Assembly (NCBI GenBank): GCA_964468985.1 | Contig: CAYXXE010000001.1 | Coordinates: 4,581 to 68,580 of the forward strand | Source: an uncultured Gaiellales bacterium | GTDB taxonomy: Bacteria; Actinomycetota; Thermoleophilia; Gaiellales; Gaiellaceae | Reading direction: 5' to 3' | Length of the DNA: 64,000 nt | Shown: positions 13,649 to 33,736 of the stretch, piece by piece | Numbering within the stretch: the first letter of the stretch is position 1 | How the letters are laid out: each line of letters starts with the position of its first letter | Position numbers and translations under genes: made by a program | Notes under the pieces: model-generated | Told to the model about the DNA's origin: nothing | What the model saw: only the letters and a program-made list of their open reading frames with translations | Databases searched by the model: none

Positions 13649-14872
13649 ATGCGCGACACGACAGACACCCCCTCCGACATCGTCGACGGCCTTCAGTCGT
13701 TCCTTGCGGCCGAGGTGAAGGCCCGGCACGAACGACACGTCGACGTGCTCGGAAATCCGCGTCACGTGTACGGCGAAGACGGTCGCTACAGCCGTGAAGT
13801 ACTCGACCTGAAGCGCGAGGTGAGGATGGCGTCTGCCGAGGCCGGGTATTACCTGATGCTTGCGCCGGAATCACTCGGAGGCTCGGGCCTCGGTTTCGTC
13901 GCCCTGTACGAGGTATGGGAGACGATCTTTCGGGTGTGCGGGGCGCGCTACTGGCTCGGCTGGGAAACGGTCGCCCACTGGACGAAGGGACCGAGTCCGA
14001 TCTTCGAGCATGTTGCCGCAAGTGTGCGCGACCGGATCCTCCCCGACCTGGCGTCCGGAGCTCGCACGACCTGCTTCGCGATGTCCGAGCCCGATGCGGG
14101 CTCCGATGCGTGGATGATGCGAACCCGCGCCGTGCAGACCGACGGCACTTGGCGGATCGACGGTGAGAAGCAATGGATCAGCGGGGCGGCAACCGCCGAG
14201 CTCGCGGTCGTTTTCGCGGTGACTGACGTGGAAGCGGCGTCCGCACGCCGCGGAGGCATCACCGCCTTCCTCGTACCGACCGCGACCCCCGGCTTCGCCG
14301 TGTATTCGGTGACGCCCATGTTTGGCCACGCAGGGAGCAACGAGGGAATCGTTCAACTCGCCGACGTGCATGTCCCGGCAGATCACGTCATCGGAGAAGT
14401 CGGTGACGGCTTCGGCCTAGCGCTCGCCGGCGTCTCGCTCGGCCGACTGTACAACGCCGCAAAGGCCGTGGGCCTGGCACGCTGGGCGCTCGACCAAGCG
14501 CTCGACTACGTCCAGGAACGACAAGCGTTCGGCAGCCCGATCTCAGCATTTCAGGGCGTGATGTTCCCACTCGCCGAAGCCGCGATGGAGGTACATGCGG
14601 CCCATCTAGTGGGTCTGAACTGCGCTCGCCTCCTCGATGCCGGTCGACCTGCGCGGAAAGAGCTCGCGATGGCGAAGGCCTACGCAACCGAGGTCGGGAC
14701 TCGCGCCGTCGATCGCGCCGTCCAGGCGCACGGAGCAATGGGCTTCACGAACGAACTCGGACTCGCCGAGGCGTGGCAACAGCTCCGACAGGTTTGGATC
14801 GCCGACGGCTCGTCTGAAATCCTGCGCCGGACGATCTCGCGCGAGCTGCTCAAAGGGGATCGCGCGCTGTGA
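13649..14872 (+). CDS. acyl-CoA dehydrogenase
   Basis: 407 aa. Motifs: CFAMSEPDAGSDAWMM, WISGA, and the C-terminal VQAHGAMGFTNELGLAEAWQQLR. Confidence 0.9.
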   Translation: MRDTTDTPSDIVDGLQSFLAAEVKARHERHVDVLGNPRHVYGEDGRYSREVLDLKREVRMASAEAGYYLMLAPESLGGSGLGFVALYEVWETIFRVCGARYWLGWETVAHWTKGPSPIFEHVAASVRDRILPDLASGARTTCFAMSEPDAGSDAWMMRTRAVQTDGTWRIDGEKQWISGAATAELAVVFAVTDVEAASARRGGITAFLVPTATPGFAVYSVTPMFGHAGSNEGIVQLADVHVPADHVIGEVGDGFGLALAGVSLGRLYNAAKAVGLARWALDQALDYVQERQAFGSPISAFQGVMFPLAEAAMEVHAAHLVGLNCARLLDAGRPARKELAMAKAYATEVGTRAVDRAVQAHGAMGFTNELGLAEAWQQLRQVWIADGSSEILRRTISRELLKGDRAL

Positions 14873-15648
14873 CCGGGTCGGACGTTTCATGGGACATCGA
14901 CGGACGAGTCGGCACGATCACCCTCGATCGCCCGCCGGTCAATGCGCTGCGTACCAAGACGTATACGGAGCTCGCCGAGGCGCTCGAAGCGCTCGTCGCG
15001 GAGCGGCGGCTGAGTGTCGCGATCCTCCGCTCCGGCTCTGCGCGCATTTTCTCGGCCGGAGCAGATGTGAAGGAGCTGCCGATGTCCCCGCAGCGCGACG
15101 AGGAACGCCAACGGCTTGCAAGGGCAGTGTTCGAACGCATTCTCCGGTTCCCGGTGCCCGTCATCTGCGCCGTACCGGGCCCCGCCCTCGGCGGCGGATG
15201 TGCGCTGGCGGCCGTGTCCGACATCCGCCTCGCGACACGTGACGCCTCGTTCGGCGTGCCGGAGATCAACGTTGGCCGTGCCGGGGGAGCGCGGTTCCTG
15301 ATGCGGCTCCTTCCCCAAGGAGTCGTACGCAGGGCGTATCTGACGGGCACGCCGATCTCAGCCGACGACGCCTTGCGGCTCGGGCTCGTAAACGAACTCT
15401 TCGACGATGCACAATCGCTCGACATCGGTGCGTATGAGCTGGCACGAGAGATTGCCGCGAAGAGCCCGACGGCAATACGCCTCGCCAAGCAATCCCTCGA
15501 TCTTGCCGAGCGGCTCCCGATCGAGTCGGGCTACGAGGTCGAACAACAATTCAGCCTGCGTCTTGCCAGCACCCCCGACGCGCTCGAGGCTGCGTCCGCA
15601 TTCCGTGAGAAGCGACAGCCGGTCTGGCCCGACGAGCCGTCGTCTTGA
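14869..15648 (+). CDS. enoyl-CoA hydratase (crotonase family)
   Basis: GTGA overlap. ITLDRPPVNAL, FSAGADVKEL and GPALGGGCALAAVSDIRLA are crotonase motifs. Confidence 0.9.
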   Translation: MTGSDVSWDIDGRVGTITLDRPPVNALRTKTYTELAEALEALVAERRLSVAILRSGSARIFSAGADVKELPMSPQRDEERQRLARAVFERILRFPVPVICAVPGPALGGGCALAAVSDIRLATRDASFGVPEINVGRAGGARFLMRLLPQGVVRRAYLTGTPISADDALRLGLVNELFDDAQSLDIGAYELAREIAAKSPTAIRLAKQSLDLAERLPIESGYEVEQQFSLRLASTPDALEAASAFREKRQPVWPDEPSS

Positions 15649-16844
15649 GCAATCCTCCCCTCGAAGGGTTCCGGGTCGTAGAGTTCGGGCAACTGCTCGC
15701 GGCGCCCAACGCCGCCATGATCCTGGCCGACCTCGGTGCCGATGTCGTCAAAGTCGAGCCTCCGTCGGGCGACCCGGGCCGCGAGCTGCAATCGGCGGCA
15801 TTCGCCGGCACGTCCACGAGCCCGTCGTTCGTCGCCTTCAACCGCGGCAAGCGTTCGATCGCGCTCGACTTGAAGGATCCCACAGGACGGCAGATCGCGC
15901 TCCGGTTGATCCAGCGGGCCGACGTCGTGATCGAGAGCCTTCGTCCCGGGGCGATGGAGCGGCTCGGGCTCGGCGTCGCTGCGGCGCAGGACCTCAATCC
16001 ACGGGTCGTCTACGCATCGGTCTCTGGGTTCGGGTTCGTGGGGCCGGAGCGCGAACGCCGCGGCGTCGATCTCGTGATCCAGGCCGAGAGCGGGATCATG
16101 TCGATCACCGGCGAGCCGGATGGGCGGCCGCTTAAGGTCGGGTTCACGGTCGTCGACGTAGCCGCCGGAAACGTGCTCGCCCAAGCGATCCTCGCCGCTC
16201 TGCTTCGGAGAGAGCGCACGGGCCGGGGCGACGTGGTGCAGGTCTCGTTGCTCGAAGTCGCGATGCACCTGCAGGCGCAGCCGCTGACCGAGTATCTGGC
16301 CACCGGGTCGGTGCCCCGCCGCAACGGCAACTCGGCGCCGATGACCGCACCGGCGGACATGGCGCGGACCAGTGACGGCCACATCGTCATCTCCGCCTAC
16401 CTCGACGACCACTGGCGCATCCTGTGCCACGAGCTCGGCCGGCAGGAGCTCATCGACGATCCACGTTTTGCCAGCAAGGTCGCCCGGGTCGAGAACCGTG
16501 CGCAACTGTTGGCGACGCTCGAGGAGACGCTCTCGGCGAGGACGAGTGCGGACTGGCTCGCCCTTCTCCAACGCTCGGGCCTCGTGGTCGGTGCGGTCAA
16601 GAGCTATGCCGACGTCGAATACTCACCTCAGGTTCGCGCGAATGGCTCGATCATCGAGCTCGACACCGACGATGGATCTCTGCTCCGAACCGTTCGCCTC
16701 CCGTTTCGATTCGCGGACTGGCAGCCGTCGTCATGGAGCCCGCCCCCCGAGCTCGGCCAGCACGGCCTCGAAGTCCTCGACGAACTCGGCTTCGCGCCGG
16801 AGGAGATCGAACTGGCGCTCTCCGCAGGAGCCGTGCGCACGTGA
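15645..16844 (+). CDS. family III CoA-transferase (CaiB/BaiF type)
   Basis: TTGA overlap. Motifs: LEGFRVVEFGQLLAAPNAAMILADLGADVVKVEPP, DLVIQAESGIMSITG. Confidence 0.9.
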   Translation: MSNPPLEGFRVVEFGQLLAAPNAAMILADLGADVVKVEPPSGDPGRELQSAAFAGTSTSPSFVAFNRGKRSIALDLKDPTGRQIALRLIQRADVVIESLRPGAMERLGLGVAAAQDLNPRVVYASVSGFGFVGPERERRGVDLVIQAESGIMSITGEPDGRPLKVGFTVVDVAAGNVLAQAILAALLRRERTGRGDVVQVSLLEVAMHLQAQPLTEYLATGSVPRRNGNSAPMTAPADMARTSDGHIVISAYLDDHWRILCHELGRQELIDDPRFASKVARVENRAQLLATLEETLSARTSADWLALLQRSGLVVGAVKSYADVEYSPQVRANGSIIELDTDDGSLLRTVRLPFRFADWQPSSWSPPPELGQHGLEVLDELGFAPEEIELALSAGAVRT

Positions 16845-18019
16845 TTCCGCGGACACTCTTCTCATCGGATCATCAACTTTTCCGCGAATCCGTCCGAAGC
16901 TTCGTCGCGACAGAGATCTTGCCGCATCACTCGGCCTGGGAGGACGCGGGCGTCGTACCGCGCTCGGTCTGGGAACAGGCGGGCGCAGCCGGGTTCCTCT
17001 GCACCGCCGTACCCGAGGAATACGGCGGGCAGGGCGGCGACTTTCTGTTCAGCCTGGTCGTAGCTGAGGAACTCGCGTCCGCGGGCGCGACCGGCCCGTT
17101 CTTCCATCTGCACTCGGACGTCGTCGCGCCGTACCTCCTTCGCTACGGCTCCGAACAGCAGAAGTCCGAGTGGCTCCCCGCGATGGCACGTGGCACTGCG
17201 ATCGGCGCGATCGCCATGTCCGAGCCGCGCGGCGGAAGCGATCTTCAGCGCATCGAAACCACCGCGACACGGAGCGGCAGCGACTGGGTCATCGACGGCC
17301 AGAAAGTCTTCATCTCGAACGGGCAGCTGGCGGATCTGGTCATCGTCGCCGCCCAGACCGAGCACGGCAGCGGGGCGAAGGGCGTCACACTCTTTCTCGT
17401 CGAAGGCGACCGTGAAGGCTTTACCCGGGGCCGGCCGCTCGACAAGATCGGTCTGCGGGCTCAGGACACGTCGGAGTTGTTCTTCACGAACGTTCGAGTC
17501 CCCGGCACAAACGTCCTCGGCGAGGTCGGTCGGGGCTTTGCGCACCTGATGACGGAGCTTGCCCAGGAGCGTCTTCTACAAGCGGCTCGTTCGATCTCGG
17601 CGTCCGAGGCGGCCATGGCCTGGACGATCGAGTACACGACAGACCGCGAAGCATTCGGCAGGCCCGTCGCGGCCTTCCAGAACACACAGTTCAAGCTCGC
17701 CGAACTGACAGCCCTGATCGCTGCGCAGCGTTGTTTCGTCGATCGCTGCGTCGAGTTGCACCTTGCGAACGAGCTCACCGCCGCCGATGCTGCGATGGCA
17801 AAGCTCAATGCCGCCGAGCTTCATTGCCGTGTGGTGGACGAGTGCCTTCAGTTCTTCGGCGGCTGGGGGTACATGCGCGAATATCCGATCGGTCGAGCGT
17901 ATGTGGACGCTCGTCAGACGAAGCTCGCGGGCGGCTCGATCGAGGTCATGAAGCTGATCATCGCGCGATCGATTCTGCCCCAGAGCGTCTGGCGTCGAGA
18001 GAAAGGCGGCGAGGAATGA
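16841..18019 (+). CDS. acyl-CoA dehydrogenase
   Basis: GTG at 16841 (GTGA overlap) gives (M)IPRTLFSSDHQLFRESVRSFV and 392 aa. Motifs: AMSEPRGGSDL, FISNG, QFFGGWGYMREYPIGRAYVDAR. Confidence 0.9.
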   Translation: MIPRTLFSSDHQLFRESVRSFVATEILPHHSAWEDAGVVPRSVWEQAGAAGFLCTAVPEEYGGQGGDFLFSLVVAEELASAGATGPFFHLHSDVVAPYLLRYGSEQQKSEWLPAMARGTAIGAIAMSEPRGGSDLQRIETTATRSGSDWVIDGQKVFISNGQLADLVIVAAQTEHGSGAKGVTLFLVEGDREGFTRGRPLDKIGLRAQDTSELFFTNVRVPGTNVLGEVGRGFAHLMTELAQERLLQAARSISASEAAMAWTIEYTTDREAFGRPVAAFQNTQFKLAELTALIAAQRCFVDRCVELHLANELTAADAAMAKLNAAELHCRVVDECLQFFGGWGYMREYPIGRAYVDARQTKLAGGSIEVMKLIIARSILPQSVWRREKGGEE

Positions 18020-18933
18020 CCGGCGGGAATCTTGCAGGGAAGGTGCTGATCGTGACCGGGGCCGGACGCGGCATCGGGAGGGAAATCGCCCTCCTCGCGG
18101 CCGCCGAGGGCGCAGGAGTCGTGGTCAACGATCTAGGGGGCGGTGCAGAAGGCAGTGGCAGCGATCCGGGCCCTGCGCACGCGGTCGTCGAGGAGATTCG
18201 CTCGGCCGGCGGCGATGCCGTCGCGAACGCCGAAAGCGTCGCATCGGAGGACGGAGCCCGGGGCATCGTCCAGGCGGCGATCGACGAGTTCGGGCAGGTT
18301 GATGTCGTTGTCAACAACGCCGGGATCCTTCGCGACAAGATCTTCCACCAGATGGCGAGCGACGATTTCGAAAAAGTCGTGCGCGTCCATCTCCACGGAA
18401 GCTTTTACATGGCTAACGCAGTGGCACCACTTTTTCGCAGCCAGGAGCGAGGCGCATTCGTCCACTTCACTTCCACATCGGGCTTGATCGGAAACCTCGG
18501 CCAAGCCAACTACGCGGCCGCCAAGCTCGGCATCGTCGGGCTCTCGAGATCGATCGCGCTCGACATGGCCCGATTCGGTGTTCGCTCCAATTGCATCGCA
18601 CCGTTCGCCTGGAGCCGCCTGATCGGCACGATCCCGACCGGCTCCGGGCAGGAGGAGGCACGCGTTGAGAAGTTCAAACGAATGGGTGCGGAGAAGATCG
18701 CTCCACTTGCGGTCTTTCTCGGCTCCGATCGGAGTGCGGAGATCACAGGGCAGATCTTCGGTGTCCGCATGAACGAGATCTTTCTGTTCAGCCAACCGCG
18801 GCCGATCCGTTCGATCCACCACTCGGACGGGTGGTCGGTCGATGCATTGGCCGAGCGACTCGCGCCTGCATTCCGAACCTCGTTCACACCGCTGGAGCGG
18901 TCCGCGGACGTCTTCAGCTGGGACCCGGTGTGA
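18016..18933 (+). CDS. long SDR of the MFE-2 / Hsd4A type ((3R)-hydroxyacyl-CoA dehydrogenase-like)
   Basis: ATGA overlap. GKVLIVTGAGRGIGREIALLAAAEGAGVVVNDLGG...VVNNAGILRDKIF...VHLHGSF...YAAAKLG matches the peroxisomal MFE-2 dehydrogenase-domain pattern. 305 aa. Confidence 0.85.
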   Translation: MTGGNLAGKVLIVTGAGRGIGREIALLAAAEGAGVVVNDLGGGAEGSGSDPGPAHAVVEEIRSAGGDAVANAESVASEDGARGIVQAAIDEFGQVDVVVNNAGILRDKIFHQMASDDFEKVVRVHLHGSFYMANAVAPLFRSQERGAFVHFTSTSGLIGNLGQANYAAAKLGIVGLSRSIALDMARFGVRSNCIAPFAWSRLIGTIPTGSGQEEARVEKFKRMGAEKIAPLAVFLGSDRSAEITGQIFGVRMNEIFLFSQPRPIRSIHHSDGWSVDALAERLAPAFRTSFTPLERSADVFSWDPV

Positions 18934-19787
18934 ACCGCGAAGCGCTGCTGCACTGGCCATTCGATGAGCTCGAGCAGTCGTATTCCGCGACCGACGCGAT
19001 CTTGTACGCGCTTGGCCTCGGGATCGGGGCGGACCCAACGGACCCGAACCAGTTGCGGTTCGTTTACGAGGAGGGGCTCGCAGCGCTACCGACCATGGCA
19101 GTCATCTTCGGTTACCCAGGCCTCTACCTTCGGGAACCAGCCGCCGACGTGAACTGGCAGCAGATGCTTCACGGCGAGCAGAGCCTCGTCTTGCACCGCC
19201 CGCTGCAGCCCGCCGGTCGCATCGTCAGCGTCAACCGAGTCGATGACGTCATCGACAAGGGCGCGGGCCGGGGCGCTCTGGTCTACGCGACCAGAGAGCA
19301 ACGGGATGCCGGCACTGGTGAGCTCATCGCCACATTGACATCAACGGCCTTCTGCCGCGCTGATGGCGGCTTCGGGGGGCCTTCCGGCCCGGTGAAGCCG
19401 GCGCATCCAGTGCCGACGGCAGAGCCGAGCTTGTCGCTTTCGACGTCGACGCTCCCGCAGGCCGCCTTGATCTATCGCTTGAGCGGAGACTTCAACCCGA
19501 TCCACGCCGACCCGCGGATCGCAGCTGAGGGAGGGTTCAGCCGGCCCGTTCTGCACGGCCTCTGCACCTTCGGGATCGCGGGGTACGCGTTGCTCGGCGC
19601 ACTCTGTCGCTACGAGCCAGAGCGTCTGCGAAGGCTGGAGGCCCGGTTTTCAGCGCCTGTCTATCCCGGTGACACGATCACAACCTCGATCTGGCAGGAG
19701 GCAGATGGTCGGGCGGCATATCGCTGCAGCGTCGCCGCGCGCGGCGTCGTCGTGATCGACAATGGCTACGTGGAGTTCGACGAGTGA
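18930..19787 (+). CDS. MaoC-like double-hotdog (R)-specific enoyl-CoA hydratase (hydratase-2 / Hsd4B-like)
   Basis: GTGA overlap, 285 aa. YRLSGDFNPIHADPRIAAEGGFSRPVLHGLCTFG is the MaoC dehydratase motif, in the C-terminal hotdog. Confidence 0.85.
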   Translation: MNREALLHWPFDELEQSYSATDAILYALGLGIGADPTDPNQLRFVYEEGLAALPTMAVIFGYPGLYLREPAADVNWQQMLHGEQSLVLHRPLQPAGRIVSVNRVDDVIDKGAGRGALVYATREQRDAGTGELIATLTSTAFCRADGGFGGPSGPVKPAHPVPTAEPSLSLSTSTLPQAALIYRLSGDFNPIHADPRIAAEGGFSRPVLHGLCTFGIAGYALLGALCRYEPERLRRLEARFSAPVYPGDTITTSIWQEADGRAAYRCSVAARGVVVIDNGYVEFDE

Positions 19788-21235
19788 CCGCCGCCGAGCT
19801 CGGAATCCACGCGTTCGGCGGCTACGTCCCGAGGCTTCGAGTGAGCCGGGAGGAGATTGCTGCGGCTCACGCCTGGGTCAACCCGGGCCTCAGCGCACTG
19901 GCTCGCTCGGAGCGCTCCCTCTGTAGCTGGGATGAGGATGCAGTCACGATGGCCGTTGATGCGGCGCGCAACTGCCTCGGACGCATCGACCGGCACCGCA
20001 TCACGGGCCTCTATCTCGGGTCGACGACAGCTCCGTACGCCGATCGGCTGAACGTCGGTCTCGTCGCCGGGGCGCTCGGGGTCGACGAAAGCACGCCAGC
20101 CTTCGACCTGGGCGGGTCACTGCGCGCCGGGACGAGCGCGATGCTCGCGGGACTCGACGCGGCCGCGGCCCGCGGCGGCGATGTCCTCTGCGTGGCGTCC
20201 GACCGGCGCGACGCCGGGCCGGCGACGATCCAGGAGCTTACGATCGGGCATGCTGCCGCCGCTGTCGTCGTCGGCCCAGGCGCGGGTCTTGCTCGGCTCG
20301 TCGGACGAAGCTCGCTCACCGTCGACTTCGTCGGGCACTTTCGGGCGTCCAACCGCGATGTCGACTACCACTGGGAAGAGCGCTGGGTGCGTGACGAGGG
20401 CTACGGGAAGCTCGTACCCAAGCTCGTGCAGCGCCTCCTCGAACAGACGTCGGTTGGCCCCGAGCGGATCGCGCATTTCTGCCTCCCAGCACCACTACGC
20501 CGTGTCGACGAAGCGGCCGCTGCTTCGATCGGGCTTCCACCGACGAGCATCCGCAACCAACTGAGCGCGGGATGCGGGGATAGCGGCGCCGCGCACCCCC
20601 TCCTGATGCTGGTCAGCGCACTCGAGGATGCAAAGCCGGGCGAGTTGATCCTCGTCGTCGGGTTCGGGCAGGGCGGCGATGCGCTCCTCTTCGAGGCCAC
20701 GGACGCGATACGTGACTTCCAACCGTCGCGTCCCTGGCTGCAGCCCGGCGCGTCCTGCTCGTACCCGCGATACCTCGCACTAACCGATCGACTCGAGCTC
20801 GACCGTGGGATGCGTGCCGAGGTAGACAAGGGAAGTGCGCTCACTGCCGCGTACCGTCACCGCGACCTCGTGCTCGCCTTGACAGGCGGCCGCTGTGAGG
20901 CATGCGGAACCCACCAGATCCCACGAGGTGAGATCTGTGTCCTGTGCGGCAGCAAAGGCTCGTTGCTCCCACACTCGTTCGCCGAATCCAAGGGCAAGGT
21001 CGCGTCGTGGTCGGCCGACAGTCTCACCTACACCCCCGATCCACCCGCCTTCTACGGGATGGTCGACTTCGTCGAGGGCGGCAGACTGCTGATGGACTTC
21101 ACCGACGTCTCCGTCGGCGAAGTGGAAGTAGGGACGCCAATGCGTATGGTCTTCCGGATCAAGGACCGGGACCGCGTACGCGGATTCGCGCGGTACTTCT
21201 GGAAGGCCGCACCCCTCATGGACAAGGAGGTCTAG
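19784..21235 (+). CDS. HMG-CoA-synthase/KAS-III-like thiolase-fold domain fused to a C-terminal DUF35 (zinc ribbon + OB fold); catalytic Cys and Glu apparently missing
   Basis: GTGA overlap. aa 1-345 align by eye to archaeal-type HMGCS (YLGSTTAPY, FDLGGSLRAGTSA, GHAAAAVVVG). aa 371-388, CEACGTHQIPRGEICVLC, is the four-Cys ribbon, followed by an OB-fold-like tail (YGMVDFVEGGRLLMDF). Confidence 0.8.
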   Translation: MTAAELGIHAFGGYVPRLRVSREEIAAAHAWVNPGLSALARSERSLCSWDEDAVTMAVDAARNCLGRIDRHRITGLYLGSTTAPYADRLNVGLVAGALGVDESTPAFDLGGSLRAGTSAMLAGLDAAAARGGDVLCVASDRRDAGPATIQELTIGHAAAAVVVGPGAGLARLVGRSSLTVDFVGHFRASNRDVDYHWEERWVRDEGYGKLVPKLVQRLLEQTSVGPERIAHFCLPAPLRRVDEAAAASIGLPPTSIRNQLSAGCGDSGAAHPLLMLVSALEDAKPGELILVVGFGQGGDALLFEATDAIRDFQPSRPWLQPGASCSYPRYLALTDRLELDRGMRAEVDKGSALTAAYRHRDLVLALTGGRCEACGTHQIPRGEICVLCGSKGSLLPHSFAESKGKVASWSADSLTYTPDPPAFYGMVDFVEGGRLLMDFTDVSVGEVEVGTPMRMVFRIKDRDRVRGFARYFWKAAPLMDKEV

Positions 21236-21239
21236 AGAG

Positions 21240-22445
21240 ATGGGGACGGGCATTCGCGATCGCGTCGTGATCCTCGGGATGGGCTGCTCGAAGTTCGGCG
21301 AGCGTTGGGATGCCGACGCCGAGGACCTCATGGTCGAGGCGTTCAGTGAGGCGCAGGCCGATGCGGGAATCGAAACCAAGGAGATCGATGCCGCCTGGTT
21401 CTCGACCTGCCAGGAAGAGATCAGCGTCGGAAAGTCGTCGATCCCGATGGCGACCGCGCTCAGGCTCGACTACATCCCCGTGACCCGGGTCGAGAACCAA
21501 TGCGCTTCCGGAACCGAGGCGTTCCGAGGCGCAGTCTACGCCGTGGCCTCGGGAGCGAGCGACATTGCGTTGGCGCTCGGCAGCGAAAAGCTGAAGGACA
21601 CCGGGTACGGCGGTCTGGCCCAGCGGGGACGGGGGAAGGTCAACGACCTGTATTGGGCGAACTACTCCGCTCCGGGCTCATTTGCCCAGCTTGCTGCCGC
21701 CTACCGGGCGAAACACAACGTCGCAGCGGACGACCTCAAGCGTGCGATGGCGCACATCTCAGTGAAGAGCCATGACAACGGCTTCTTGAACCCAAAGGCT
21801 CATCTACGGAAGAGGATCGACATCGAGACGGTTCTCGGTGCGCCGATGGTCGCCGAGCCGCTGGGCCTCTACGACTGCTGCGGGGTCAGCGATGGTGCTG
21901 CGGCGGCGATCGTAACGACCCCGGAGATCGCTCGGGGCCTCGGCAAGCGTGATCTCGTCAGCGTCAAGGCGCTGCAACTTTCGGTTTCGAATGGTCTCGA
22001 GGCCCAGCATCAGTCATGGGACGGCAGTTACTTCATGACGGCACGCCGGGCTGCAAAGCGTGCTTATGACGAGGCAGGGGTAACGAATCCGCGGAAGGAG
22101 TTGAGCCTGGTCGAGGCGCACGACTGTTTCTCGATCACCGAGCTGGTGACTCTCGAGGATCTCTTTATCTCGCCCGAGGGTGGCGCTGTCACGGATGTCC
22201 TCGACGGCTTTTATGACGCGGACGGTGCGCTTCCGTGCCAGATCGACGGTGGGCTGAAGTGTTTCGGCCACCCGATTGGCGCGTCGGGGTTGCGGATGCT
22301 GTACGAGCTCTACCTGCAGATGACGGAGCGTGCCGGCGATCGACAGCTAGCGCGGGAGCCGGTGTTGGGGTTGACACACAATCTGGGCGGGGCGCCGAGC
22401 GCGAACGTCTGCAGCGTCACCTTGCTCGGCAAGTACCCCGCTTGA
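21240..22445 (+). CDS. SCP-x / Ltp-type thiolase-fold protein
   Basis: AAGGAGG lies upstream. Motifs: RVVILGMGCSKFGERW, VENQCASGTEAFR (nucleophile Cys), EAHDCFSITEL, KCFGHPIGASG. Confidence 0.88.
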   Translation: MGTGIRDRVVILGMGCSKFGERWDADAEDLMVEAFSEAQADAGIETKEIDAAWFSTCQEEISVGKSSIPMATALRLDYIPVTRVENQCASGTEAFRGAVYAVASGASDIALALGSEKLKDTGYGGLAQRGRGKVNDLYWANYSAPGSFAQLAAAYRAKHNVAADDLKRAMAHISVKSHDNGFLNPKAHLRKRIDIETVLGAPMVAEPLGLYDCCGVSDGAAAAIVTTPEIARGLGKRDLVSVKALQLSVSNGLEAQHQSWDGSYFMTARRAAKRAYDEAGVTNPRKELSLVEAHDCFSITELVTLEDLFISPEGGAVTDVLDGFYDADGALPCQIDGGLKCFGHPIGASGLRMLYELYLQMTERAGDRQLAREPVLGLTHNLGGAPSANVCSVTLLGKYPA

Positions 22446-22447
22446 AG

Positions 22448-23575
22448 ATGGGCCCGCTCGAGGGTATCCGCGTCGTCGAGATGGGTGGGATTGGGCCGGT
22501 CCCTTTCGCGGCGATGGTGCTCGCGGGTCTCGGTGCTGACGTTGTTCGAGTCGAGCGTCCGGGGGCGGCCCCCGTAGTTGCCTCGGAGTCTCGATACAAC
22601 GTCGCGCTCCGCGACCGGACGGCGATTGTGCTCGACCTGAAGACGCCACTTGCGGTTGAGGCGGTTCTTCGGCTTGCCGCGCACTCCGACGCGTTCCTTG
22701 AAGGGTGGCGGCCCGGGGTGGCAGAACGTCTCGGCATCGGGCCGTCGGCCTGCGCCGAGCGTAACCCGCGACTGGTCTACGGGAGGATGACGGGCTGGGG
22801 CCAGGACGGCCCGCTGAGTGGCACGGCTGGACACGACATCAACTACATCGCGTTGACAGGCGTTCTCGATGCGATCGGACGGGTTGGTGAGCGACCTGTC
22901 CCTCCGCTCAACCTTGTTGGCGACTTCGGCGGCGGCGGCATGCTCCTCGCGCTCGGTGTTCTCGCGGGGATTCTCGAGGCCCGGACTTCGGGCGTCGGAC
23001 AGGTGATCGACGCCGCGATGGTCGATGGTGCGGCCCAGCTCGCCGCGGGGTTCTACGGCTACGTGGCCGACGGCACTTGGAGTCTCCAGCGTGGGACGAA
23101 TCTCCTCGACTCGGGCGCTCCGTTCTATGACGTCTACGAGACGTCGGATGGCCGTCACATGGCCGTCGGTGCAATCGAGTCTCGCTTCTACGCCGAGCTC
23201 CTTCGCGGCCTCGGAATCGATGGTGACTCGCTTCCACACCAGCTAGACCGAGCTGCGTGGCCGGAACTCAGGCGGGTCTTCAGCGAAGCGTTCCGAACCC
23301 GGTCTCGCGCCGAATGGGCCGAGGTGTTCGCGAACAGGGATGCCTGTGTCACGCCGGTCCTTTCATTCGGGGAAGCGCCACGGCATGAGCACAGTCGCTT
23401 CAGGGATAGCTATGTCGAGGTGGACGGCATCCGCCAGCCTGCGCCCGCGCCACGCTTCTCGCGCACTCCGGCGAGCACGACTCGACCTCCACGGGCCGCC
23501 GGTGCGGACACCCCGGAGATCCTCAACAAGCTCGGCTTCGACGAGCAGGATATCCGGCGTCTGCGAGTCAACTGA
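22448..23575 (+). CDS. mcr: alpha-methylacyl-CoA racemase-like family III CoA-transferase
   Basis: The ATG at 22448 is 2 nt after the thiolase stop. MGPLEGIRVVEMGGIGPVPFAAMVLAGLGADVVRVERP closely resembles my recollection of the M. tuberculosis Mcr N-terminus. GHDINYIALTG is also present. 375 aa. Confidence 0.8.
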   Translation: MGPLEGIRVVEMGGIGPVPFAAMVLAGLGADVVRVERPGAAPVVASESRYNVALRDRTAIVLDLKTPLAVEAVLRLAAHSDAFLEGWRPGVAERLGIGPSACAERNPRLVYGRMTGWGQDGPLSGTAGHDINYIALTGVLDAIGRVGERPVPPLNLVGDFGGGGMLLALGVLAGILEARTSGVGQVIDAAMVDGAAQLAAGFYGYVADGTWSLQRGTNLLDSGAPFYDVYETSDGRHMAVGAIESRFYAELLRGLGIDGDSLPHQLDRAAWPELRRVFSEAFRTRSRAEWAEVFANRDACVTPVLSFGEAPRHEHSRFRDSYVEVDGIRQPAPAPRFSRTPASTTRPPRAAGADTPEILNKLGFDEQDIRRLRVN

Positions 23576-25199
23576 CCGTCTCAACGGCGATCGAGCCGTG
23601 GTCGATCCCGGCCACGAGCTCGTGCTTCCTGATCTTTCCTGTCGAGGTCATCGGCAGCGCGTCGATTCGCGCCAGGGCCTGGGGCAGCTTGAACGTCGCG
23701 ACTCCCTGCGCACGCAGTCCAGCAGTGACGTCGTCAAGGCTGAGAGTCGCGGTCCCATGCAGCACGACGCACGCGCAGACGATCTCTCCAAGTCGCGCGT
23801 GAGGCAGACCGACGACGGCTACGCCAGCCACGCCGGGAAGCTCAACGATCATCTCTTCGAGCTCACGCGGCGCGATGTTGATCCCGCCCCGGATGATGAT
23901 CTCCTTCTTCCGGCCGACGATCGTCAGGTAGCCGTCGTCATCGATCACTCCGATGTCGCCCGTCCTGACCCAGCCGTCGGGGTCGAAACTCGCCGTTGTG
24001 CGCTCGGGATCAGCGAAGAATCCGACACACGCATTTGGGCTGCGCCCGAATATCTCGCCTGGCACGTTGCATGCCGGCTCGCCGTCGTCGCCTCGAACCT
24101 CGATCTCGACGCCGTCCAGGGCTCGACCATCCGTCCAGATCTGCTTCTCGAGCGGACTCTCCGGGCGGTTCCAGGTGGCGCAGAGCAACTCGGTCGAGCC
24201 GTAAAGCCGCAAGACCTGAATGCCGGTCGCGCGCGCTGCCTCGACGAGCGGCGGGGGCACGGGCGCGCCACCTGATCCGAAATGGCGCAGTGACGAAGCA
24301 TCGACGTCATTCCGCGATGCGTACTCCACGATGTCGGCCAGGAACGTGGTCGCTGCCAGCGTGTACGAGCAACGAAAGCGGCTGACCAATCGCACCGCCT
24401 CGTCGGCACTCCAGCGATCCTGCAAGACGAGCGGAAGGCCGTAATAGACGGCGGGGCGAACGCCGTAGTTGAGGCCCGTCGAATGACCGATCGGTGACGG
24501 CATCCAGACGATCTCATCGTCGCCGAGCCCGAGGGAACTCCAAAGCGACCGCACTCCGTGGTTCGTCGTTTGCTCGGTGTGCATGATCGCCTTCGGCGCC
24601 GCCTCCGTCCCCGACGTGAAGATCAGTTCAGAGACGGCAGCAGCGTCGCGCTCTGCGACGTCAGGTCCATCCTCGAAAGACTCGATCCAATCGGCGAAGG
24701 CGCCGGGCGCGTCGAGCGGCCCCGGCACCTCGACCGCGTCGAGAAGCGTTGGAACATGCGGACGCAGCGATTCGATCATCGCCGAGAAGTCATGGTCGCG
24801 ATAGACGGTCGGTGTGAAGATCAGCTTCGAACCGCTCGCCGAGAGCATGTGTCGCAACTCTCGGTCGCGGTAGAGCGGAAGCAGCGGGTTGAGCACCGCT
24901 CCGACACTGAGCACGGCAAGGTCTACAGCAACCGTCTCATACCAGTTCGGAAGCTGGACGGAGACCACGTCACCCGCGGCGATGCCACGGCTGCGCAGGT
25001 GGCCAGCGAGTCGCCGCACGTCGGCGGCGAGCTGGTGCCAAGTCACGATCCGGTCTCCGCCGCAGTCGATCACGGCTGCGGCACCCGGCCGCTCTTTAGC
25101 GTGGCGTCGCAGGCGGCCGGGCAAGGTCGAACCGTCCCAGGCGCCCGAACGCTCGTAGGCGGCTCGACGTTCGCTCGAGGTGACGACGTCCGTGAGCAT
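23568..25199 (-). CDS. AMP-forming acyl-CoA synthetase/ligase
   Basis: 543 aa. Motifs: LIFTSGTEAAPKAIMH (AMP-binding motif), WVRTGDIG, GRKKEIIIRGGINI, TSTGKIRK. Confidence 0.9.
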   Translation of the reverse strand: MLTDVVTSSERRAAYERSGAWDGSTLPGRLRRHAKERPGAAAVIDCGGDRIVTWHQLAADVRRLAGHLRSRGIAAGDVVSVQLPNWYETVAVDLAVLSVGAVLNPLLPLYRDRELRHMLSASGSKLIFTPTVYRDHDFSAMIESLRPHVPTLLDAVEVPGPLDAPGAFADWIESFEDGPDVAERDAAAVSELIFTSGTEAAPKAIMHTEQTTNHGVRSLWSSLGLGDDEIVWMPSPIGHSTGLNYGVRPAVYYGLPLVLQDRWSADEAVRLVSRFRCSYTLAATTFLADIVEYASRNDVDASSLRHFGSGGAPVPPPLVEAARATGIQVLRLYGSTELLCATWNRPESPLEKQIWTDGRALDGVEIEVRGDDGEPACNVPGEIFGRSPNACVGFFADPERTTASFDPDGWVRTGDIGVIDDDGYLTIVGRKKEIIIRGGINIAPRELEEMIVELPGVAGVAVVGLPHARLGEIVCACVVLHGTATLSLDDVTAGLRAQGVATFKLPQALARIDALPMTSTGKIRKHELVAGIDHGSIAVETVS

Positions 25200-26254
25200 C
25201 AGACTCGTAGCTCCTCTGGAAGCGGCACTGACTGGAAACCGTCCTCGAGGATCTGCATTCCGTCCACGAGCAAGCCGTGGATGGTGTTCAGCAGGCTTTC
25301 ATAGATCGGGTCGACTCGCCTTCCGGCGCGATGAAGATGAAGGTTGTAGCCGAGAATCGCCGCGTACTTCAGACAGCCGAGCGCGGTATACCAGTTGATC
25401 TCGTCCTCGGTCGCTGCTGCGAACGCAGCGATCTCACCGGGAGAGATACCAAGGTTGCCAGAGGGGTTCGGGTCCGGTGCGTAGCGTGCGCGCAAAGCAG
25501 TTACCGTCAGGGACGCGACATCCATGAGCGGCTGGCCGATCTCTGCGATTTCCCAGTCGACGACCGCGACGACGGCGCCCTCCGCGAACAGGAGGTTCGC
25601 GTAGTGGTAGTCACCGTGAACGAGGGTCGGCTGGCAAGCCCGCATCGTCCGGGCGCGCAGGTGCCTGCTCAGAGCTCGGCCCGGCCCATGCTCGTCCTCT
25701 GGCGCTCGTTCAAGGAGTTGTGACCAGCGGTCGATCTCCGCGATCGGCTCGATCGGCGACTCCGAGCCGATCCCCGTTGCGGGAACTGGGATTGCCTGCA
25801 GGGCGGCCAGCGCTTCGGCAGCCGCACGCGCAACGGTCGCACCACCGTGCTCCGCGACTGCCTCGGGCCACTCGAGTCCGTCGACCCGCTCCATCAGGAC
25901 GAACGAGCGGCCGTCGATCGCCGGCTCCGACGAGAAGGCGAGCACACGCGGAACAACGAACCCGGCCGCGTGCAGCGCCGACATGATCCGCCCCTGCCGG
26001 CCAATGTCGGCCGGTCCGGCGATCCGGGCGGCGGGAGGCGAGAGCCGGAGGACCAGCGACTCAGATCCGGTCTCGACGGAGTAGGTGAACCCGGAGTGGC
26101 CAGAGCCGAACGGCGCGACCTCCTCGACGCGGACCTTCTGCCCCGCAACCCGCCGGAGGACCGAGCCGATGTCCTGCCGGATGCGATCGAGCTGGCTGTC
26201 GTCGGAGCTGTCGATGGTGTCCTGAAGTCTAATCCGAACTTTCGCTATTATCAA
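25199..26254 (-). CDS. APH-fold phosphotransferase (acyl-CoA-dehydrogenase-associated kinase type)
   Basis: Only the C-terminal 351 codons of the 702-aa ORF look like protein. Motifs: FGSGHSGFTYSV, TLVHGDYHYANLLF (HxDxxxxN), VVDWEIAEIG. I prefer the TTG at 26254; ATG 26296 and GTG 26293 are alternatives. Its stop shares one base with the ligase ATG (TGATG). Confidence 0.8.
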   Translation of the reverse strand: MIIAKVRIRLQDTIDSSDDSQLDRIRQDIGSVLRRVAGQKVRVEEVAPFGSGHSGFTYSVETGSESLVLRLSPPAARIAGPADIGRQGRIMSALHAAGFVVPRVLAFSSEPAIDGRSFVLMERVDGLEWPEAVAEHGGATVARAAAEALAALQAIPVPATGIGSESPIEPIAEIDRWSQLLERAPEDEHGPGRALSRHLRARTMRACQPTLVHGDYHYANLLFAEGAVVAVVDWEIAEIGQPLMDVASLTVTALRARYAPDPNPSGNLGISPGEIAAFAAATEDEINWYTALGCLKYAAILGYNLHLHRAGRRVDPIYESLLNTIHGLLVDGMQILEDGFQSVPLPEELRV

Positions 26255-26266
26255 ACAATCGGTTGG
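26251..26266. promoter_or_regulatory. operator-like palindrome CAAAC-N4-GTTTG, copy F
   Basis: TCAAAC AATC GGTTGG is preceded by TATTAT. The same TATTATCAAAC string recurs at copy G. It sits in the kinase/thioesterase divergent region and overlaps the candidate kinase start. Confidence 0.5.
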
Positions 26267-26281
26267 CAGAAAGCAGGAGAA

Positions 26282-26674
26282 ATCGGAGCGCACCATACAA
26301 CCCCTTCCCGCGTCTCGTGGCACGACACGGATGCGAGTGGTCGAATCCACTTCACGGCGGCGTTTCGCTGGGCCGAGGCTGCCGAGGCGGGGTTGATGCG
26401 CGCGGCCGGAGTGGATCCCTCGACGTCGATCGACTATCCACGCCGGAAAGTGGAAGCCGAGTACCTGATTCCATTGCGTTTCGACGACGCCGTCGAGACG
26501 AAGATCACGGTCGATCGGATCGGCCGGACGTCGCTCACGCTCGCCTGGGATGTCACCTCCCGCGGGCGCGTCGCCATCCGGGGCTTGCACACGATCGTTC
26601 GAGTCGATGGCGCCGGCCGGCCGAAGGAGCTGGATGCAGAGATCGGAATCGCGCTTGGGGGCGCTGGGAGGTAA
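26282..26674 (+). CDS. 4HBT/YbgC-type hotdog acyl-CoA thioesterase, start codon unresolved
   Basis: RVSWHDTDASGRIHFTAAFRWAEAAE...YLIPLRFDDAVE...VDRIGRTSLTLAWDV is a hotdog thioesterase pattern. No ATG/GTG/TTG lies just upstream, so the coordinate given is the ATC at 26282. See the finding at 26096-26674. Confidence 0.55.
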   Translation: MGAHHTTPSRVSWHDTDASGRIHFTAAFRWAEAAEAGLMRAAGVDPSTSIDYPRRKVEAEYLIPLRFDDAVETKITVDRIGRTSLTLAWDVTSRGRVAIRGLHTIVRVDGAGRPKELDAEIGIALGGAGR

Positions 26675-26683
26675 GGGGAGGGG

Positions 26684-27907
26684 ATGCCCGAAGCCGTTGT
26701 CGTTTCCGCCGTGCGCACGCCGATTGGCCGCGCCCGCAAGGGGTCGCTCGCTGGGATGCGGCCCGATGACCTCGCCGTCGCGGCGATCGAGGCAGCGCTT
26801 GCTCGAGTGCCCACGCTCGACCGGGACTCGATCGAGGATCTTCTGCTCGGCTGCGCAGAGCCTCACGACGAGCATGGCGCAAATCTCGCCCGCCGCGTCG
26901 CCGTGCAGCTCGGCCTCGACGGGCTGCCGGGAACGACGGTCAATCGCTTCTGCGCGTCGAGCGTCCAGACGACACGGATGGCGTTTCATGCGATCAAGAG
27001 TGGTGAAGGGGACGTCTTTGTCAGCGCGGGCGTCGAGTGTGTCTCGCGATACGACCCCGAGTTGGGCATGGGGACGGGCAAGGTGGGCTCGGCACATCCC
27101 GCGTTCGCGGCCGCGCAGGCGCGAAGTGCCAGGATGGCTGAAACGGGGGACGTTTGGGTCGACCCGCGTACGCGCGGCCTGCTCCCGGACGTGTTCATCG
27201 CGATGGGCCAAACGGCCGAGAATGTGGCGAGCCTGAGGGGCGTCAGTCGCGAGGACCAGGATGCGTTCGCGGTGTTGAGTCAGAACCGCGCCGAAGCTGC
27301 GATTCACGATGGGTTCTTCGACCGCGAGATTGTTCCTGTCAAGACGCCCGACGGCGTGATCGTCGCCCGGGATGATGGACCGCGTAGCGGCACCACGATC
27401 GAACAGGTCGCAGAGTTGCAGCCCGTCTTCCGAGCAGCCGGCACCGTGACAGCCGGAAACTGCTGTTCCCTGAACGACGGCGCGGCTGCGCTTGTCGTCA
27501 TGAGCGATGTCAGGGCGAATGAGCTCGACTGCCGCCCGCTCGCACGGATCGTTGCGACAGGCGTCTCGGCGCTCTCACCGGAGATCATGGGACTCGGCCC
27601 GGTCGCCGCCTCGCAGCAGGCGCTGGCCAGGGCCGGGATGACGATCGATGACATCGACTTGGTGGAGATCAACGAGGCGTTCGCCGCCCAGGTTCTCCCT
27701 TCAGCCGAGGATCTCGGTGTTGACGTCGACAAGCTCAATGTGCACGGCGGTGCAATCGCGCTCGGTCATCCGTTCGGGATGAGCGGTGCCCGTATCACCG
27801 CGACGCTTCTGAATGGGCTGCAGACGCTCGACAAGCAGTTTGGACTGGAGACGATGTGCATCGGTGGCGGTCAGGGAATGGCGATCATCTTCGAGCGGCT
27901 GAGATGA
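26684..27907 (+). CDS. acetyl-CoA C-acyltransferase (classical thiolase, FadA-like)
   Basis: Motifs: MPEAVVVSAVRTPIGRARKGSL, VNRFCASSVQT (Cys nucleophile), NEAFAAQ, NVHGGAIALGHPFGMSGAR, CIGGGQGMA. Confidence 0.92.
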   Translation: MPEAVVVSAVRTPIGRARKGSLAGMRPDDLAVAAIEAALARVPTLDRDSIEDLLLGCAEPHDEHGANLARRVAVQLGLDGLPGTTVNRFCASSVQTTRMAFHAIKSGEGDVFVSAGVECVSRYDPELGMGTGKVGSAHPAFAAAQARSARMAETGDVWVDPRTRGLLPDVFIAMGQTAENVASLRGVSREDQDAFAVLSQNRAEAAIHDGFFDREIVPVKTPDGVIVARDDGPRSGTTIEQVAELQPVFRAAGTVTAGNCCSLNDGAAALVVMSDVRANELDCRPLARIVATGVSALSPEIMGLGPVAASQQALARAGMTIDDIDLVEINEAFAAQVLPSAEDLGVDVDKLNVHGGAIALGHPFGMSGARITATLLNGLQTLDKQFGLETMCIGGGQGMAIIFERLR

Positions 27908-29115: not shown

Positions 29116-30038
29116 GCGGAAAGGTCGCGATCGTCACCGGGGCAGGACGCGGCATCGGCCGCTCACACGCGCTTGCCCTCGCCGAGGCAGGCGCACGGCT
29201 CGTCGTCAACGATCTCGGGGTGGAGCTGTCCGGTGATGGTGCGGACATCACGCCGGCCGAGCAGGTCGCAGCACAGATTCGTGCAGCCGGCGGCGAGGCC
29301 ATCACCGACGGCGAAGACGTAGCGGATTTCACAGGCGCCGCACGGCTCGTACGTCGCGCAATTGACTCCTACGGTGACCTCGACATCGTCGTCAACAACG
29401 CAGGCATCCTCCGCGATCGCATGCTCGTGAACATGACCGAGCCCGAGTGGGACGCCGTCATGGCGGTCCACCTCAAGGGCCATTTCGCGGTTACCCGACA
29501 CGCCGCCGACTACTGGCGCCAGCGCGCAAAGGCGGGCGACGACGTGCGGGGACGCGTGATCAACACGTCGAGCCCGTCCGGGGTCTTCGGCAACGTCGGC
29601 CAGGCGAACTACGGTGCCGCAAAGGCCGGGATCGCGGCGTTTACCGTCATCACGGCGCTTGAGCTGGCGCGCTACGGGATCACGGTGAACTGCCTCGCGC
29701 CGAACGCGCGAACCCGGATGACCGAGGAGACGTTCGACGTTGCGGCGCCCGACGGGGATTGGGATCCGTTCGACCCGGCGAACACCTCCGTCGTCGTCGT
29801 CGCGCTGTGCGCGGACGCCGCCCAGGAGATCACGGGCCAGGTCTTCCACGTCTGGGGAGGAGCAGTGAACGCTCTCCAAGGGTGGGCTCCGGGCGAGCTC
29901 TTCGACGCTCCGGGCGGCTGGCAGGCGCCGGCGTTGCTCGCGGCGATGTTGGAGCGGTTTCCGGCCGGCGTCGCGCCAAGCGGACTAATGGCAGGCATCG
30001 AGGCTGCGGGCGGACGGGCCTTCGGAAAGGCGAGTTAG
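29103..30038 (+). CDS. long SDR of the MFE-2 / Hsd4A type (paralogue of 18016-18933)
   Basis: The TTG start overlaps the ACAD stop by 13 nt. Pattern: GKVAIVTGAGRGIGRSHALALAEAGARLVVNDLG...VVNNAGILRDRML...VHLKGHF...YGAAKAG. Confidence 0.85.
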   Translation: MADLSGKVAIVTGAGRGIGRSHALALAEAGARLVVNDLGVELSGDGADITPAEQVAAQIRAAGGEAITDGEDVADFTGAARLVRRAIDSYGDLDIVVNNAGILRDRMLVNMTEPEWDAVMAVHLKGHFAVTRHAADYWRQRAKAGDDVRGRVINTSSPSGVFGNVGQANYGAAKAGIAAFTVITALELARYGITVNCLAPNARTRMTEETFDVAAPDGDWDPFDPANTSVVVVALCADAAQEITGQVFHVWGGAVNALQGWAPGELFDAPGGWQAPALLAAMLERFPAGVAPSGLMAGIEAAGGRAFGKAS

Positions 30039-31201: not shown

Positions 31202-31202
31202 C

Positions 31203-32779: not shown

Positions 32780-32793
32780 CTGGACGCTCTCGG

Positions 32794-33618: not shown

Positions 33619-33736
33619 GCCGTCTCCTCCGTCCCATGCGCCGTCGAGCCGTAGCCGACTCCGACCCGGTTCTGAGAGGACGAGGCTGGGGCTCGATGCT
33701 TTGCCGGACGAACGATCATCATTCGCTCCTGATATT

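Follow-up and report, generated by a model that had tools for sequence, protein, structure and literature searches.

The window examined here, a 64,000-nt stretch of DNA from an uncultured Gaiellales bacterium (contig CAYXXE010000001.1), raises the question of what a protein that resembles HMG-CoA synthase (HMGS), has lost the catalytic residues of that enzyme and is fused to a DUF35 domain might do directly in front of a thiolase gene. The fused gene lies at 19784-21235 on the + strand and encodes 483 amino acids. We suggest that its product probably has no catalysis of its own and acts as an assembly subunit in a thiolytic thiolase complex serving the beta-oxidation operon in which the gene lies. 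The sole biochemical study of such a complex left its role open, and we add a residue census over 149 homologs, a warning against misannotation and a testable physiological role.

The open reading frame (ORF), Pfam, sequence matches in the PDB, an AlphaFold2 (AF2) model and a Foldseek search describe the product of this gene, which has a GTG start in a region of 65% G+C, as a dead HMGS/PhlA-like domain, a linker and a DUF35 domain in one polypeptide. The HMGS-like thiolase-fold domain comprises aa 5-317 (19796-20734), as delimited by the match to the archaeal HMGS model PRK04262 and by residue mapping on 6esq_I. PRK04262 matched this region at E=1.3e-48 with 165.9 bits, which does not reach the family cut-off of 244, and the TIGR00748 equivalog gave 108.1 bits, below its cut-off of 353. 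Since the PRK04262 score is far under the cut-off, NCBI's own rule would give no HMGS name to the protein. Pfam ACP_syn_III_C was found at aa 219-297. The best PDB sequence match was PhlA of the Pseudomonas PhlACB acyltransferase (5m3k_A, 1.9e-28), and further matches were a second PhlA-type protein (9skh_A) and the HMGS of Methanothermococcus (6esq_I, 1.4e-21); the PhlA and HMGS matches span aa 3-316. E-values of this size are far beyond chance. The body is connected to DUF35 by a linker at aa 339-351 (20798-20836), the sole segment of the AF2 model with a pLDDT <50. The DUF35 domain consists of the four-Cys zinc ribbon CEACGTHQIPRGEICVLC (C371, C374, C385 and C388; 20894-20947), read in the translation and matched by zf-ChsH2 (aa 366-391; 21.9 bits, slightly under the 23.2 cut-off), and an OB fold at aa 394-477 (20963-21214), delimited by OB_ChsH2_C (aa 403-458; 35.5 bits, above the cut-off), the beta strands of the AF2 model and alignments to 6esq_E, PhlB and ChsH2-DUF35. 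When aa 356-479 were compared with the PDB, the archaeal DUF35 protein 6esq_E (5.7e-8), PhlB and ChsH2-DUF35 were matched. The AF2 model, built from 29 homologs (alignment A1), reached a pLDDT of 85.6 and a pTM of 0.89, and Foldseek placed PhlA, archaeal HMGS and MucA on top with target-normalised TM scores of 0.85-0.88. The same 483-aa gene call is carried by ENA metagenome contigs together with the 285-aa call of the MaoC gene in front of it, with identical genes on ERZ27245389, ERZ27245396 and ERZ27245402.

The catalytic residues were mapped by counting along the HMMER alignment to 6esq_I with the published numbering of the archaeal HMGS tetrad, E82, C114, H238 and N270, mutation of which abolishes HMG-CoA formation (PMC12960953). 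First, E82 corresponds to T81 (codon 20024-20026) in the motif GSTT (nt 20018-20029). Second, C114 corresponds to L113 (codon 20120-20122), with S112 just before it (nt 20111-20131); the motif reads GGSLRAGTS. Third, H238 is replaced by P235 (codon 20486-20488). Finally, N270 is replaced by D266 (codon 20579-20581) within GDSGAA. The original prediction, made from the letters of the window, had placed a gene with these three motifs at 19784-21235, had read them as an apparent loss of the catalytic residues and had recognised a complete DUF35 at the C-terminus. The ORF, its translation and the alignment to 6esq_I confirmed the coordinates and motifs, and the alignment left the triad lost with no Cys at the active site; the ribbon and OB fold described above bear out the DUF35.

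The replacement of these residues extends far beyond the window. T81, S112, R114 and P235 do not vary among 29 close homologs (52-72% identity), and the census was widened to 120 diverse full-length cluster representatives (31-52% identity), giving 149 homologs in all. Among the 120 representatives, the former Glu position is occupied by Thr in 101 and by Glu in one, the former Cys position by L, Q, R, A, M or P and never by Cys (0/120), and the former His position by P, Y, A, S, N or Q, with His in one. The zinc-ribbon Cys residues are invariant in the close homologs and 88-94% conserved in the representatives. By alignment, then, the HMGS-like body is without all four residues of the E-C-H-N tetrad, and the loss is fixed across the family as sampled. 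S112 was considered as a substitute nucleophile and rejected as the principal explanation, since Glu, His and Asn are also lost and position 113 varies (L/Q/R/A/M/P).

The gene that follows encodes an SCP2/archaeal-type thiolase of 401 aa (21240-22445, + strand), identified by NCBIfam NF004810 (660 bits, cut-off 403), PDB matches and motifs. As had been noted from the letters, it begins after a 4-nt gap and keeps its Cys; its ATG is preceded by AAGGAGG. The closest PDB matches were archaeal-type acetoacetyl-CoA thiolases (ACATs), namely 7yvy_A (1.3e-52) and the archaeal ACAT 6esq_A (1.8e-50), the next-closest were SCP2-type thiolases (6hsj_A, 1.6e-41) and BbsB, and PhlC was only a remote match (1.2e-13). 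The catalytic motifs are intact: NQC88ASG with Cys88 at codon 21501-21503, H294-D-C-F at 22119-22130 and G343-H-P at 22266-22274. The CAS, HDCF and GHP motifs align with the same motifs of 6esq_A, and the corresponding CxS, HDxF and GHx motifs have been used to tell working thiolases from PhlC and MucB (PMC12960953).

These motifs bear on the alternative in which DUF35 docks an Ltp2/Sal-type retro-aldolase, as the partner enzyme, onto the MaoC hydratase. Hydratase-aldolase complexes held together by DUF35 are amply documented (PMC12329534), and a MaoC gene lies directly upstream, its stop overlapping the start of the fused gene. In ChsH1-ChsH2-Ltp2 and Shy-Sal, DUF35 likewise docks a thiolase-fold enzyme to an enzyme of the neighbouring step. 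In those complexes, however, DUF35 is carried on the MaoC hydratase, and the partner is a retro-aldolase without nucleophilic Cys that reads YDHF (Ltp2) or YDCY (Sal), Sal having Gly at the nucleophile position (PMC12329534), whereas the partner in the window has Cys88, HDCF and GHP, and its DUF35 is borne by the HMGS-like protein. Furthermore, a dedicated 3-hydroxyacyl-CoA dehydrogenase is encoded in the operon, so that a 3-keto intermediate for thiolysis is expected. We regard a retro-aldolase partner as extremely improbable. The original prediction had proposed a pseudoenzyme scaffold for either a thiolase or a retro-aldolase assembly; the dead site and the intact paired thiolase favour the former, and Cys88, HDCF and GHP speak against the latter.

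The pairing of scaffold and thiolase is conserved over a wide range of bacteria. A word-indexed protein search yielded 2,870 relatives, of which almost all have both domains and a length of ~480-490 aa. When representatives at 50% identity were searched exhaustively, 2,834 clusters matched at E<=1e-3 and 477 of them at E<=1e-30. When one genome per species was scanned, the fused gene was present in at least 588 species genomes, from groups including Actinomycetota, Acidobacteriota, Alpha-, Beta- and Gammaproteobacteria and Rokubacteria, which gives a lower bound for the extent of the fused, Cys-less form that the original prediction had wished to see surveyed. The closest species-representative genome among the matches listed was an Actinomycetota metagenome-assembled genome (MAG), with 65% identity for the 483-aa protein. 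A thiolase at least 60% identical to that of the window lies downstream on the same strand in 60 of the 65 loci with at least 1.5 kb of downstream DNA, and within 400 bp in 54 of them. Across phyla the identity of the thiolase is 65-86%, against 45-65% for the scaffold. Among the 35 loci that extend for at least 6 kb to either side, an ortholog of the short-chain dehydrogenase (SDR) encoded upstream in the window was found nearby in 16, an ortholog of its MaoC in 12 and one of its acyl-CoA dehydrogenase in 9, and SDR-(MaoC)-scaffold-thiolase is a frequent gene order.

The scaffold-thiolase pair is also carried on large plasmids of cultured degraders, namely Variovorax SRS16, Azoarcus KH32C, Novosphingobium pentaromativorans US6-1, Sphingobium, and Rhodococcus DK17 and PD630. 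For three of the plasmid loci the annotation was read (Variovorax SRS16, N. pentaromativorans US6-1 and Streptomyces cathayae); in each, a gene named "acetyl-CoA acetyltransferase" directly follows the fused gene, and catabolic clusters surround the pair in the loci of Variovorax SRS16 and N. pentaromativorans US6-1. In the fused protein on plasmid 3 of Variovorax sp. SRS16 (locus L081, 8977-10467), three zinc-ribbon Cys residues are lost and only one of the four is left (GRCEVTGSVHFPPSRLSYDQ).

In the window, the pair belongs to a run of nine genes on the + strand (13649-23575). The run begins with an acyl-CoA dehydrogenase (13649-14872) and a crotonase-type enoyl-CoA hydratase (14869-15648), both assigned by Pfam. 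They are followed by a family III CoA-transferase (15645-16844; Pfam CoA_transf_3, 432 bits) that is Rv3272-like (5yit_A, 3.7e-85), and by a second acyl-CoA dehydrogenase (16841-18019; Pfam Acyl-CoA_dh_N, _M and _1). Next come a (3R)-hydroxyacyl-CoA dehydrogenase of the MFE-2 type, which is the SDR of 305 aa (18016-18933), and an (R)-specific enoyl-CoA hydratase 2 of the MFE-2 type, which is the MaoC protein of 285 aa (18930-19787). The best PDB matches of the SDR were the yeast MFE-2 (3R)-hydroxyacyl-CoA dehydrogenase (2et6_A, 7.8e-97) and then human and rat 17beta-HSD4 (1zbq_A and 1gz6_A), and the MaoC protein matched Pfam MFE-2_hydrat-2_N and MaoC_dehydratas and the human MFE-2 hydratase 2 (1s9c_A, 5e-53). 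The last gene, 2 nt past the thiolase stop, encodes an alpha-methylacyl-CoA racemase of 375 aa (22448-23575) that matched MCR of M. tuberculosis (1x74_A) at 2.6e-127. Its GHD and LVGD motifs align to His126/Asp127 and Asp156 of MCR, which we take to be the catalytic residues. Start/stop overlaps of 4 nt (GTGA or ATGA) occur at 14869, 15645, 16841, 18016, 18930 and 19784; the sequence is GTGA where the MaoC gene meets the fused gene and where the CoA-transferase gene meets 16841, and ATGA at the junction of 16841-18019 with the SDR gene. Every junction between these nine consecutive genes is a 4-nt overlap or a gap of 2-4 nt, which indicates a single translationally coupled operon. The whole operon is present in the same order in the closest genome locus (L001), in an Actinomycetota MAG, where the first two genes are also syntenic.

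The content of this operon bears on the direction of the reaction. A biosynthetic complex, either a Claisen-condensing thiolase complex or a Friedel-Crafts C-acyltransferase like PhlACB and MucABC, would agree with PhlA as the best solved sequence relative, with PhlA and MucA among the top Foldseek matches, and with the bias of an archaeal thiolase/DUF35 complex to condensation (bioRxiv 10.1101/2024.07.05.601840). PhlACB (5M3K/5MG5) and MucABC (9VBO/9VBT) share with the window a tetrad-less HMGS-like subunit, PhlA or MucA, which is needed for assembly and non-catalytic. They differ in that their proteins are unfused and encoded in polyketide synthase or nonribosomal peptide synthetase (PKS/NRPS) clusters, and in that their thiolase-like subunit, which is without HDxF, transfers acetyl groups to small acceptors of aromatic or tetramic type. 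The window thiolase keeps the HDCF motif at the position where PhlC and MucB have lost HDxF, and its match to PhlC is weak (1.2e-13 vs 1.8e-50 for archaeal ACAT). Its neighbours are dehydrogenases, hydratases, CoA-transferases and a racemase, a catabolic context, and no PKS/NRPS gene was found among the 34 window ORFs scanned (5.4-42 kb, including every gene flanking the operon), the families of which are those of beta-oxidation, CoA-transferases, ligases, transporters, regulators and redox proteins. Nor were mevalonate-pathway genes found among the window ORFs scanned. Furthermore, a fused complex purified from P. fluorescens did not condense acetyl-CoA (PMC12960953). A biosynthetic direction is in our judgement very unlikely.

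The P. fluorescens complex is the closest characterised counterpart of the pair in the window, and its purification means that the architecture, which the original prediction took to be uncharacterised, had in fact been described. It was reported by Liao et al. (Nat Commun, January 2026) as a fused, tetrad-less HMGS-DUF35 with an ACAT that keeps Cys, HDxF and GHx (PMC12960953). It makes neither HMG-CoA nor acetoacetyl-CoA and cleaves acetoacetyl-CoA thiolytically, and H294Y in HDxF nearly abolishes thiolysis (PMC12960953). By the count of the same study, HMGS-like, ACAT and DUF35 domains are co-located at 1,030 bacterial loci, 1,001 of them without nearby secondary-metabolite genes (PMC12960953). 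The window locus has PF08541, PF00108 and PF01796 within 10 genes, as in the mining of that study, and shares with PfACAT/HMGS-DUF35 the fusion, the absence of E-C-H-N, the adjacent ACAT-type thiolase with Cys/HDxF/GHx and the absence of PKS/NRPS neighbours. At the level of sequence, where every feature examined agrees, the window gene is a further example of the complex type described biochemically in 2026. The two systems differ in that only acetoacetyl-CoA was tested in P. fluorescens and no pathway was assigned, while the window pair lies in an MFE-2-type operon with a racemase. This operon context suggests a real catabolic role, with bulkier 2-methyl-branched substrates than acetoacetyl-CoA.

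The archaeal thiolase/HMGCS/DUF35 complex (6ESQ) contains the same three modules, which match the window at 1.8e-50 for the thiolase, a target-normalised TM of 0.88 for the HMGS fold and 5.7e-8 for DUF35. The two systems probably have in common that the thiolase and a partner of the HMGS fold are clamped together by DUF35. The archaeal complex, in contrast, consists of three separate proteins, and its active HMGS pulls the unfavourable condensation forward for mevalonate. In the window protein the HMGS part has a dead site and is covalently joined to DUF35, so that two active sites sharing one CoA site are not present; the context is catabolic and the thiolysis direction is expected. PhlA was classed as an inactive thiolase-superfamily protein already in 2010, when DUF35 fusions to thiolase-superfamily domains were also noted (PMC2954200). 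PhlA and MucA are earlier examples of dead HMGS-like subunits, with no known catalytic role.

Based on these comparisons, we propose that the 483-aa protein would assemble with the thiolase of the next gene, which would be the sole catalytic member. As in the archaeal and Phl/Muc complexes, the task of HMGS-DUF35 would be to hold the thiolase in a soluble, assembled state and to complete the interfacial CoA-binding chamber; complex formation and an activity restricted to thiolysis are here carried over, by analogy, from the P. fluorescens homolog. The scaffold/thiolase pair would perform the last step of a D-specific beta-oxidation cycle of the operon, the members of which would be the family III CoA-transferase, an acyl-CoA dehydrogenase, hydratase 2, the (3R)-hydroxyacyl-CoA dehydrogenase, the thiolase complex and the alpha-methylacyl-CoA racemase. 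Thiolysis would release propionyl-CoA or acetyl-CoA.

The nature of the substrates is suggested by the peroxisomal pathway. AMACR, DBP/MFE-2 and SCPx jointly beta-oxidise pristanic acid and the bile-acid side chain in peroxisomes (PMC4920857). By homology, the window encodes together a hydratase 2, a (3R)-hydroxyacyl-CoA dehydrogenase, an SCP2-type thiolase and a 2-methylacyl-CoA racemase, and Desulfobacterota relatives of the scaffold add SCP2 domains. Since this enzyme set is that of peroxisomal 2-methyl-branched beta-oxidation, the likely substrates are 2-methyl-branched acyl-CoAs, for example those of isoprenoid acids or sterol side chains, and we infer that the operon is a split bacterial counterpart of the peroxisomal pathway. 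It differs from that pathway in that the genes are split, an acyl-CoA dehydrogenase replaces the oxidase, and the dead HMGS-DUF35 partner is absent in eukaryotes. In the literature searched beyond PMC12960953, no link of HMGS-DUF35 proteins to beta-oxidation, a racemase, MFE-2 or anaerobic degraders was found. The role proposed here, that of the thiolytic step in a D-specific beta-oxidation whose substrates are probably methyl-branched, would be relevant to the breakdown of isoprenoid, hydrocarbon and sterol side chains by soil and sediment bacteria and to the question of how pseudoenzymes are kept as assembly subunits.

Natural gene fusions indicate which further enzymes may be attached to the scaffold. 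Three long scaffold representatives were found: P0138 (911 aa) with SDR and SCP2, P0159 (800 aa) with SDR, and P0133 (722 aa) with two SCP2 domains. The SDR domain of P0138 is 42% identical to the free-standing SDR of the window. Proteins of ~910 aa composed of dead HMGS, DUF35, MFE-2-type SDR and SCP2 make up at least 120 protein clusters (71-91% identity), so the 911-aa form is no assembly accident; where named, these clusters all belong to Desulfobacterota, e.g. Desulfomonile and Desulfobacterales, and in consensus they are also tetrad-less. The AF2 model of the 911-aa fusion (alignment A2) was poor, with a pLDDT of 63 and a pTM of 0.40. On a 3.4-Mb contig (locus L083, 5833-11962), a ~910-aa gene is flanked on one side by a gene for a hydratase2-SDR-SCP2 protein with the same domain composition as MFE-2 and on the other by a thiolase gene, which is followed by an OYE/dienoyl-CoA-reductase-like gene and biotin carboxylase subunits. 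This thiolase is 66% identical to that of the window and has the same CAS, HDCF and GHP motifs. No description of the ~910-aa four-module protein was found in the literature searched.

The fusions point to SDR and SCP2, not the MaoC hydratase, as attached partners. In archaea, direct binding of both an SDR and a MaoC protein to a thiolase/DUF35 pair has been demonstrated (bioRxiv 10.1101/2024.07.05.601840), and by analogy the two observations together make a larger beta-oxidation assembly around the scaffold plausible. This fatty-acid synthase complex of S. acidocaldarius comprises the enzyme types that are encoded immediately upstream in the window; it differs in being archaeal, in having no HMGS-like domain and in its proposed synthetic direction. 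Tentatively, the dead HMGS-DUF35 might even organise, as its hub, a beta-oxidation metabolon that would be the bacterial equivalent of peroxisomal MFE-2/SCPx. It might dock the (3R)-hydroxyacyl-CoA dehydrogenase, perhaps also hydratase 2 and SCP2, and pass the bulky 2-methyl-branched 3-ketoacyl-CoA to the thiolase through the inherited shared CoA chamber. If so, the bacterial "orphan" HMGS/ACAT/DUF35 loci would be working catabolic machines and not evolutionary intermediates.

Several points weigh against the role of a non-catalytic assembly subunit in branched-chain beta-oxidation, and they have to be considered together with two further explanations. First, the 120 representatives conserve polar residues in or close to the former active site (D108 in 94%, S112 in ~82% and R114 in 87%), and, judged from these residues, the HMGS-like pocket may retain a ligand-binding or catalytic role. 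The pocket could in that case have been neofunctionalised around D108, S112, R114 and H271, the last invariant among the 29 close homologs, into a second enzyme or binder such as a hydrolase, a decarboxylase or a holder of the acyl chain, and the retention of the scaffold in at least 588 species implies that it is under selection. However, the exchanges of Glu for Thr, of Cys for Leu, Gln or Arg and of His for Pro, Tyr or Ala vary from member to member, which is unlike a new, fixed active site, and R114 corresponds to K115 of active archaeal HMGS, so that its conservation is ancestral. Moreover, the P. fluorescens complex showed only thiolase-dependent thiolysis, sensitive to H294Y, and no catalytic role is known for PhlA and MucA. 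Of the competing explanations neofunctionalisation is the main one, and we consider it unlikely.

Second, complex formation by the 483-aa protein is proposed by analogy and from gene order, and the likeness to PfACAT/HMGS-DUF35 is one of described domains and residues. Third, the authors of the P. fluorescens study read their complex as an evolutionary intermediate without a defined pathway (PMC12960953). Applied to the window, this reading would make the pair the leftover of a former mevalonate complex, deprived of its HMGS activity and serving no defined pathway, and the faster evolution of the HMGS-like part relative to the thiolase agrees with it. Against such a leftover stand the retention of the fused gene beside its thiolase in species of several phyla, with many invariant residues, its embedding in a translationally coupled nine-gene beta-oxidation operon, the repeated fusion to SDR and SCP2, and the carriage on catabolic plasmids of degraders; we find this explanation quite improbable. 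Fourth, a racemase is adjacent in only 5 of 80 related loci (L001, L021, L048, L056 and L058), and the 2-methyl-branched substrate is therefore proposed for operons of this type, not for the family at large. Finally, the fused gene on the Variovorax plasmid (L081) is clustered with genes for a Rieske ring-hydroxylating dioxygenase, an alpha/beta hydrolase and several hydratases; branched-chain beta-oxidation is therefore not the only catabolic route that the family serves.

The loss of the tetrad also affects how these genes are named. Thousands of bacterial genes of the fused type go in annotations by the name "HMG-CoA synthase", "KAS III C-terminal domain protein" or "OB-fold protein", and the JGI names of many relatives are likewise HMG-CoA synthase. 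The fused member on the Streptomyces cathayae plasmid NZ_CP121683.1 (locus L087, 4896-6281), for instance, is named 'hydroxymethylglutaryl-CoA synthase' in RefSeq, and this protein, too, is without the catalytic Glu and Cys (LATTSAPY; DLRG-HRSGASA). The naming looks like a systematic misannotation. Because the family as sampled, down to 31% identity, is without the catalytic residues, such names alone should not be counted as a mevalonate-pathway step of a genome.

Around the operon, the window encodes a Liv-type ABC transporter, an acyl-CoA synthetase, further acyl-CoA dehydrogenases and a second Ltp/DUF35 operon. A scan of the whole window with Rfam gave no family at the gathering score. The second operon (30035-33741) consists of an enoyl-CoA hydratase, Ltp, DUF35 and an acyl-CoA dehydrogenase, and its unfused Ltp and DUF35 pair at 31203-32779 (- strand), already pointed out from the letters of the window, was recovered by Pfam. 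Where the thiolase at 21240-22445 has HDCF and GHP, this Ltp reads YDCF and GY-L. YDxF/YDCY is the motif of the Ltp2/Sal retro-aldolases and of trypanosomal SLP (PMC12329534), and the Ltp of the unfused pair is, from its motifs, probably not a thiolase. A gene at 25199-27307 on the - strand encodes a protein of 702 aa in which an APH phosphotransferase domain is confined to aa 397-601, and the N-terminal ~390 aa gave no Pfam match at E<=1e-4. This gene ends exactly at the start of the acyl-CoA synthetase gene (23568-25199), and the pair therefore appears to be co-transcribed.

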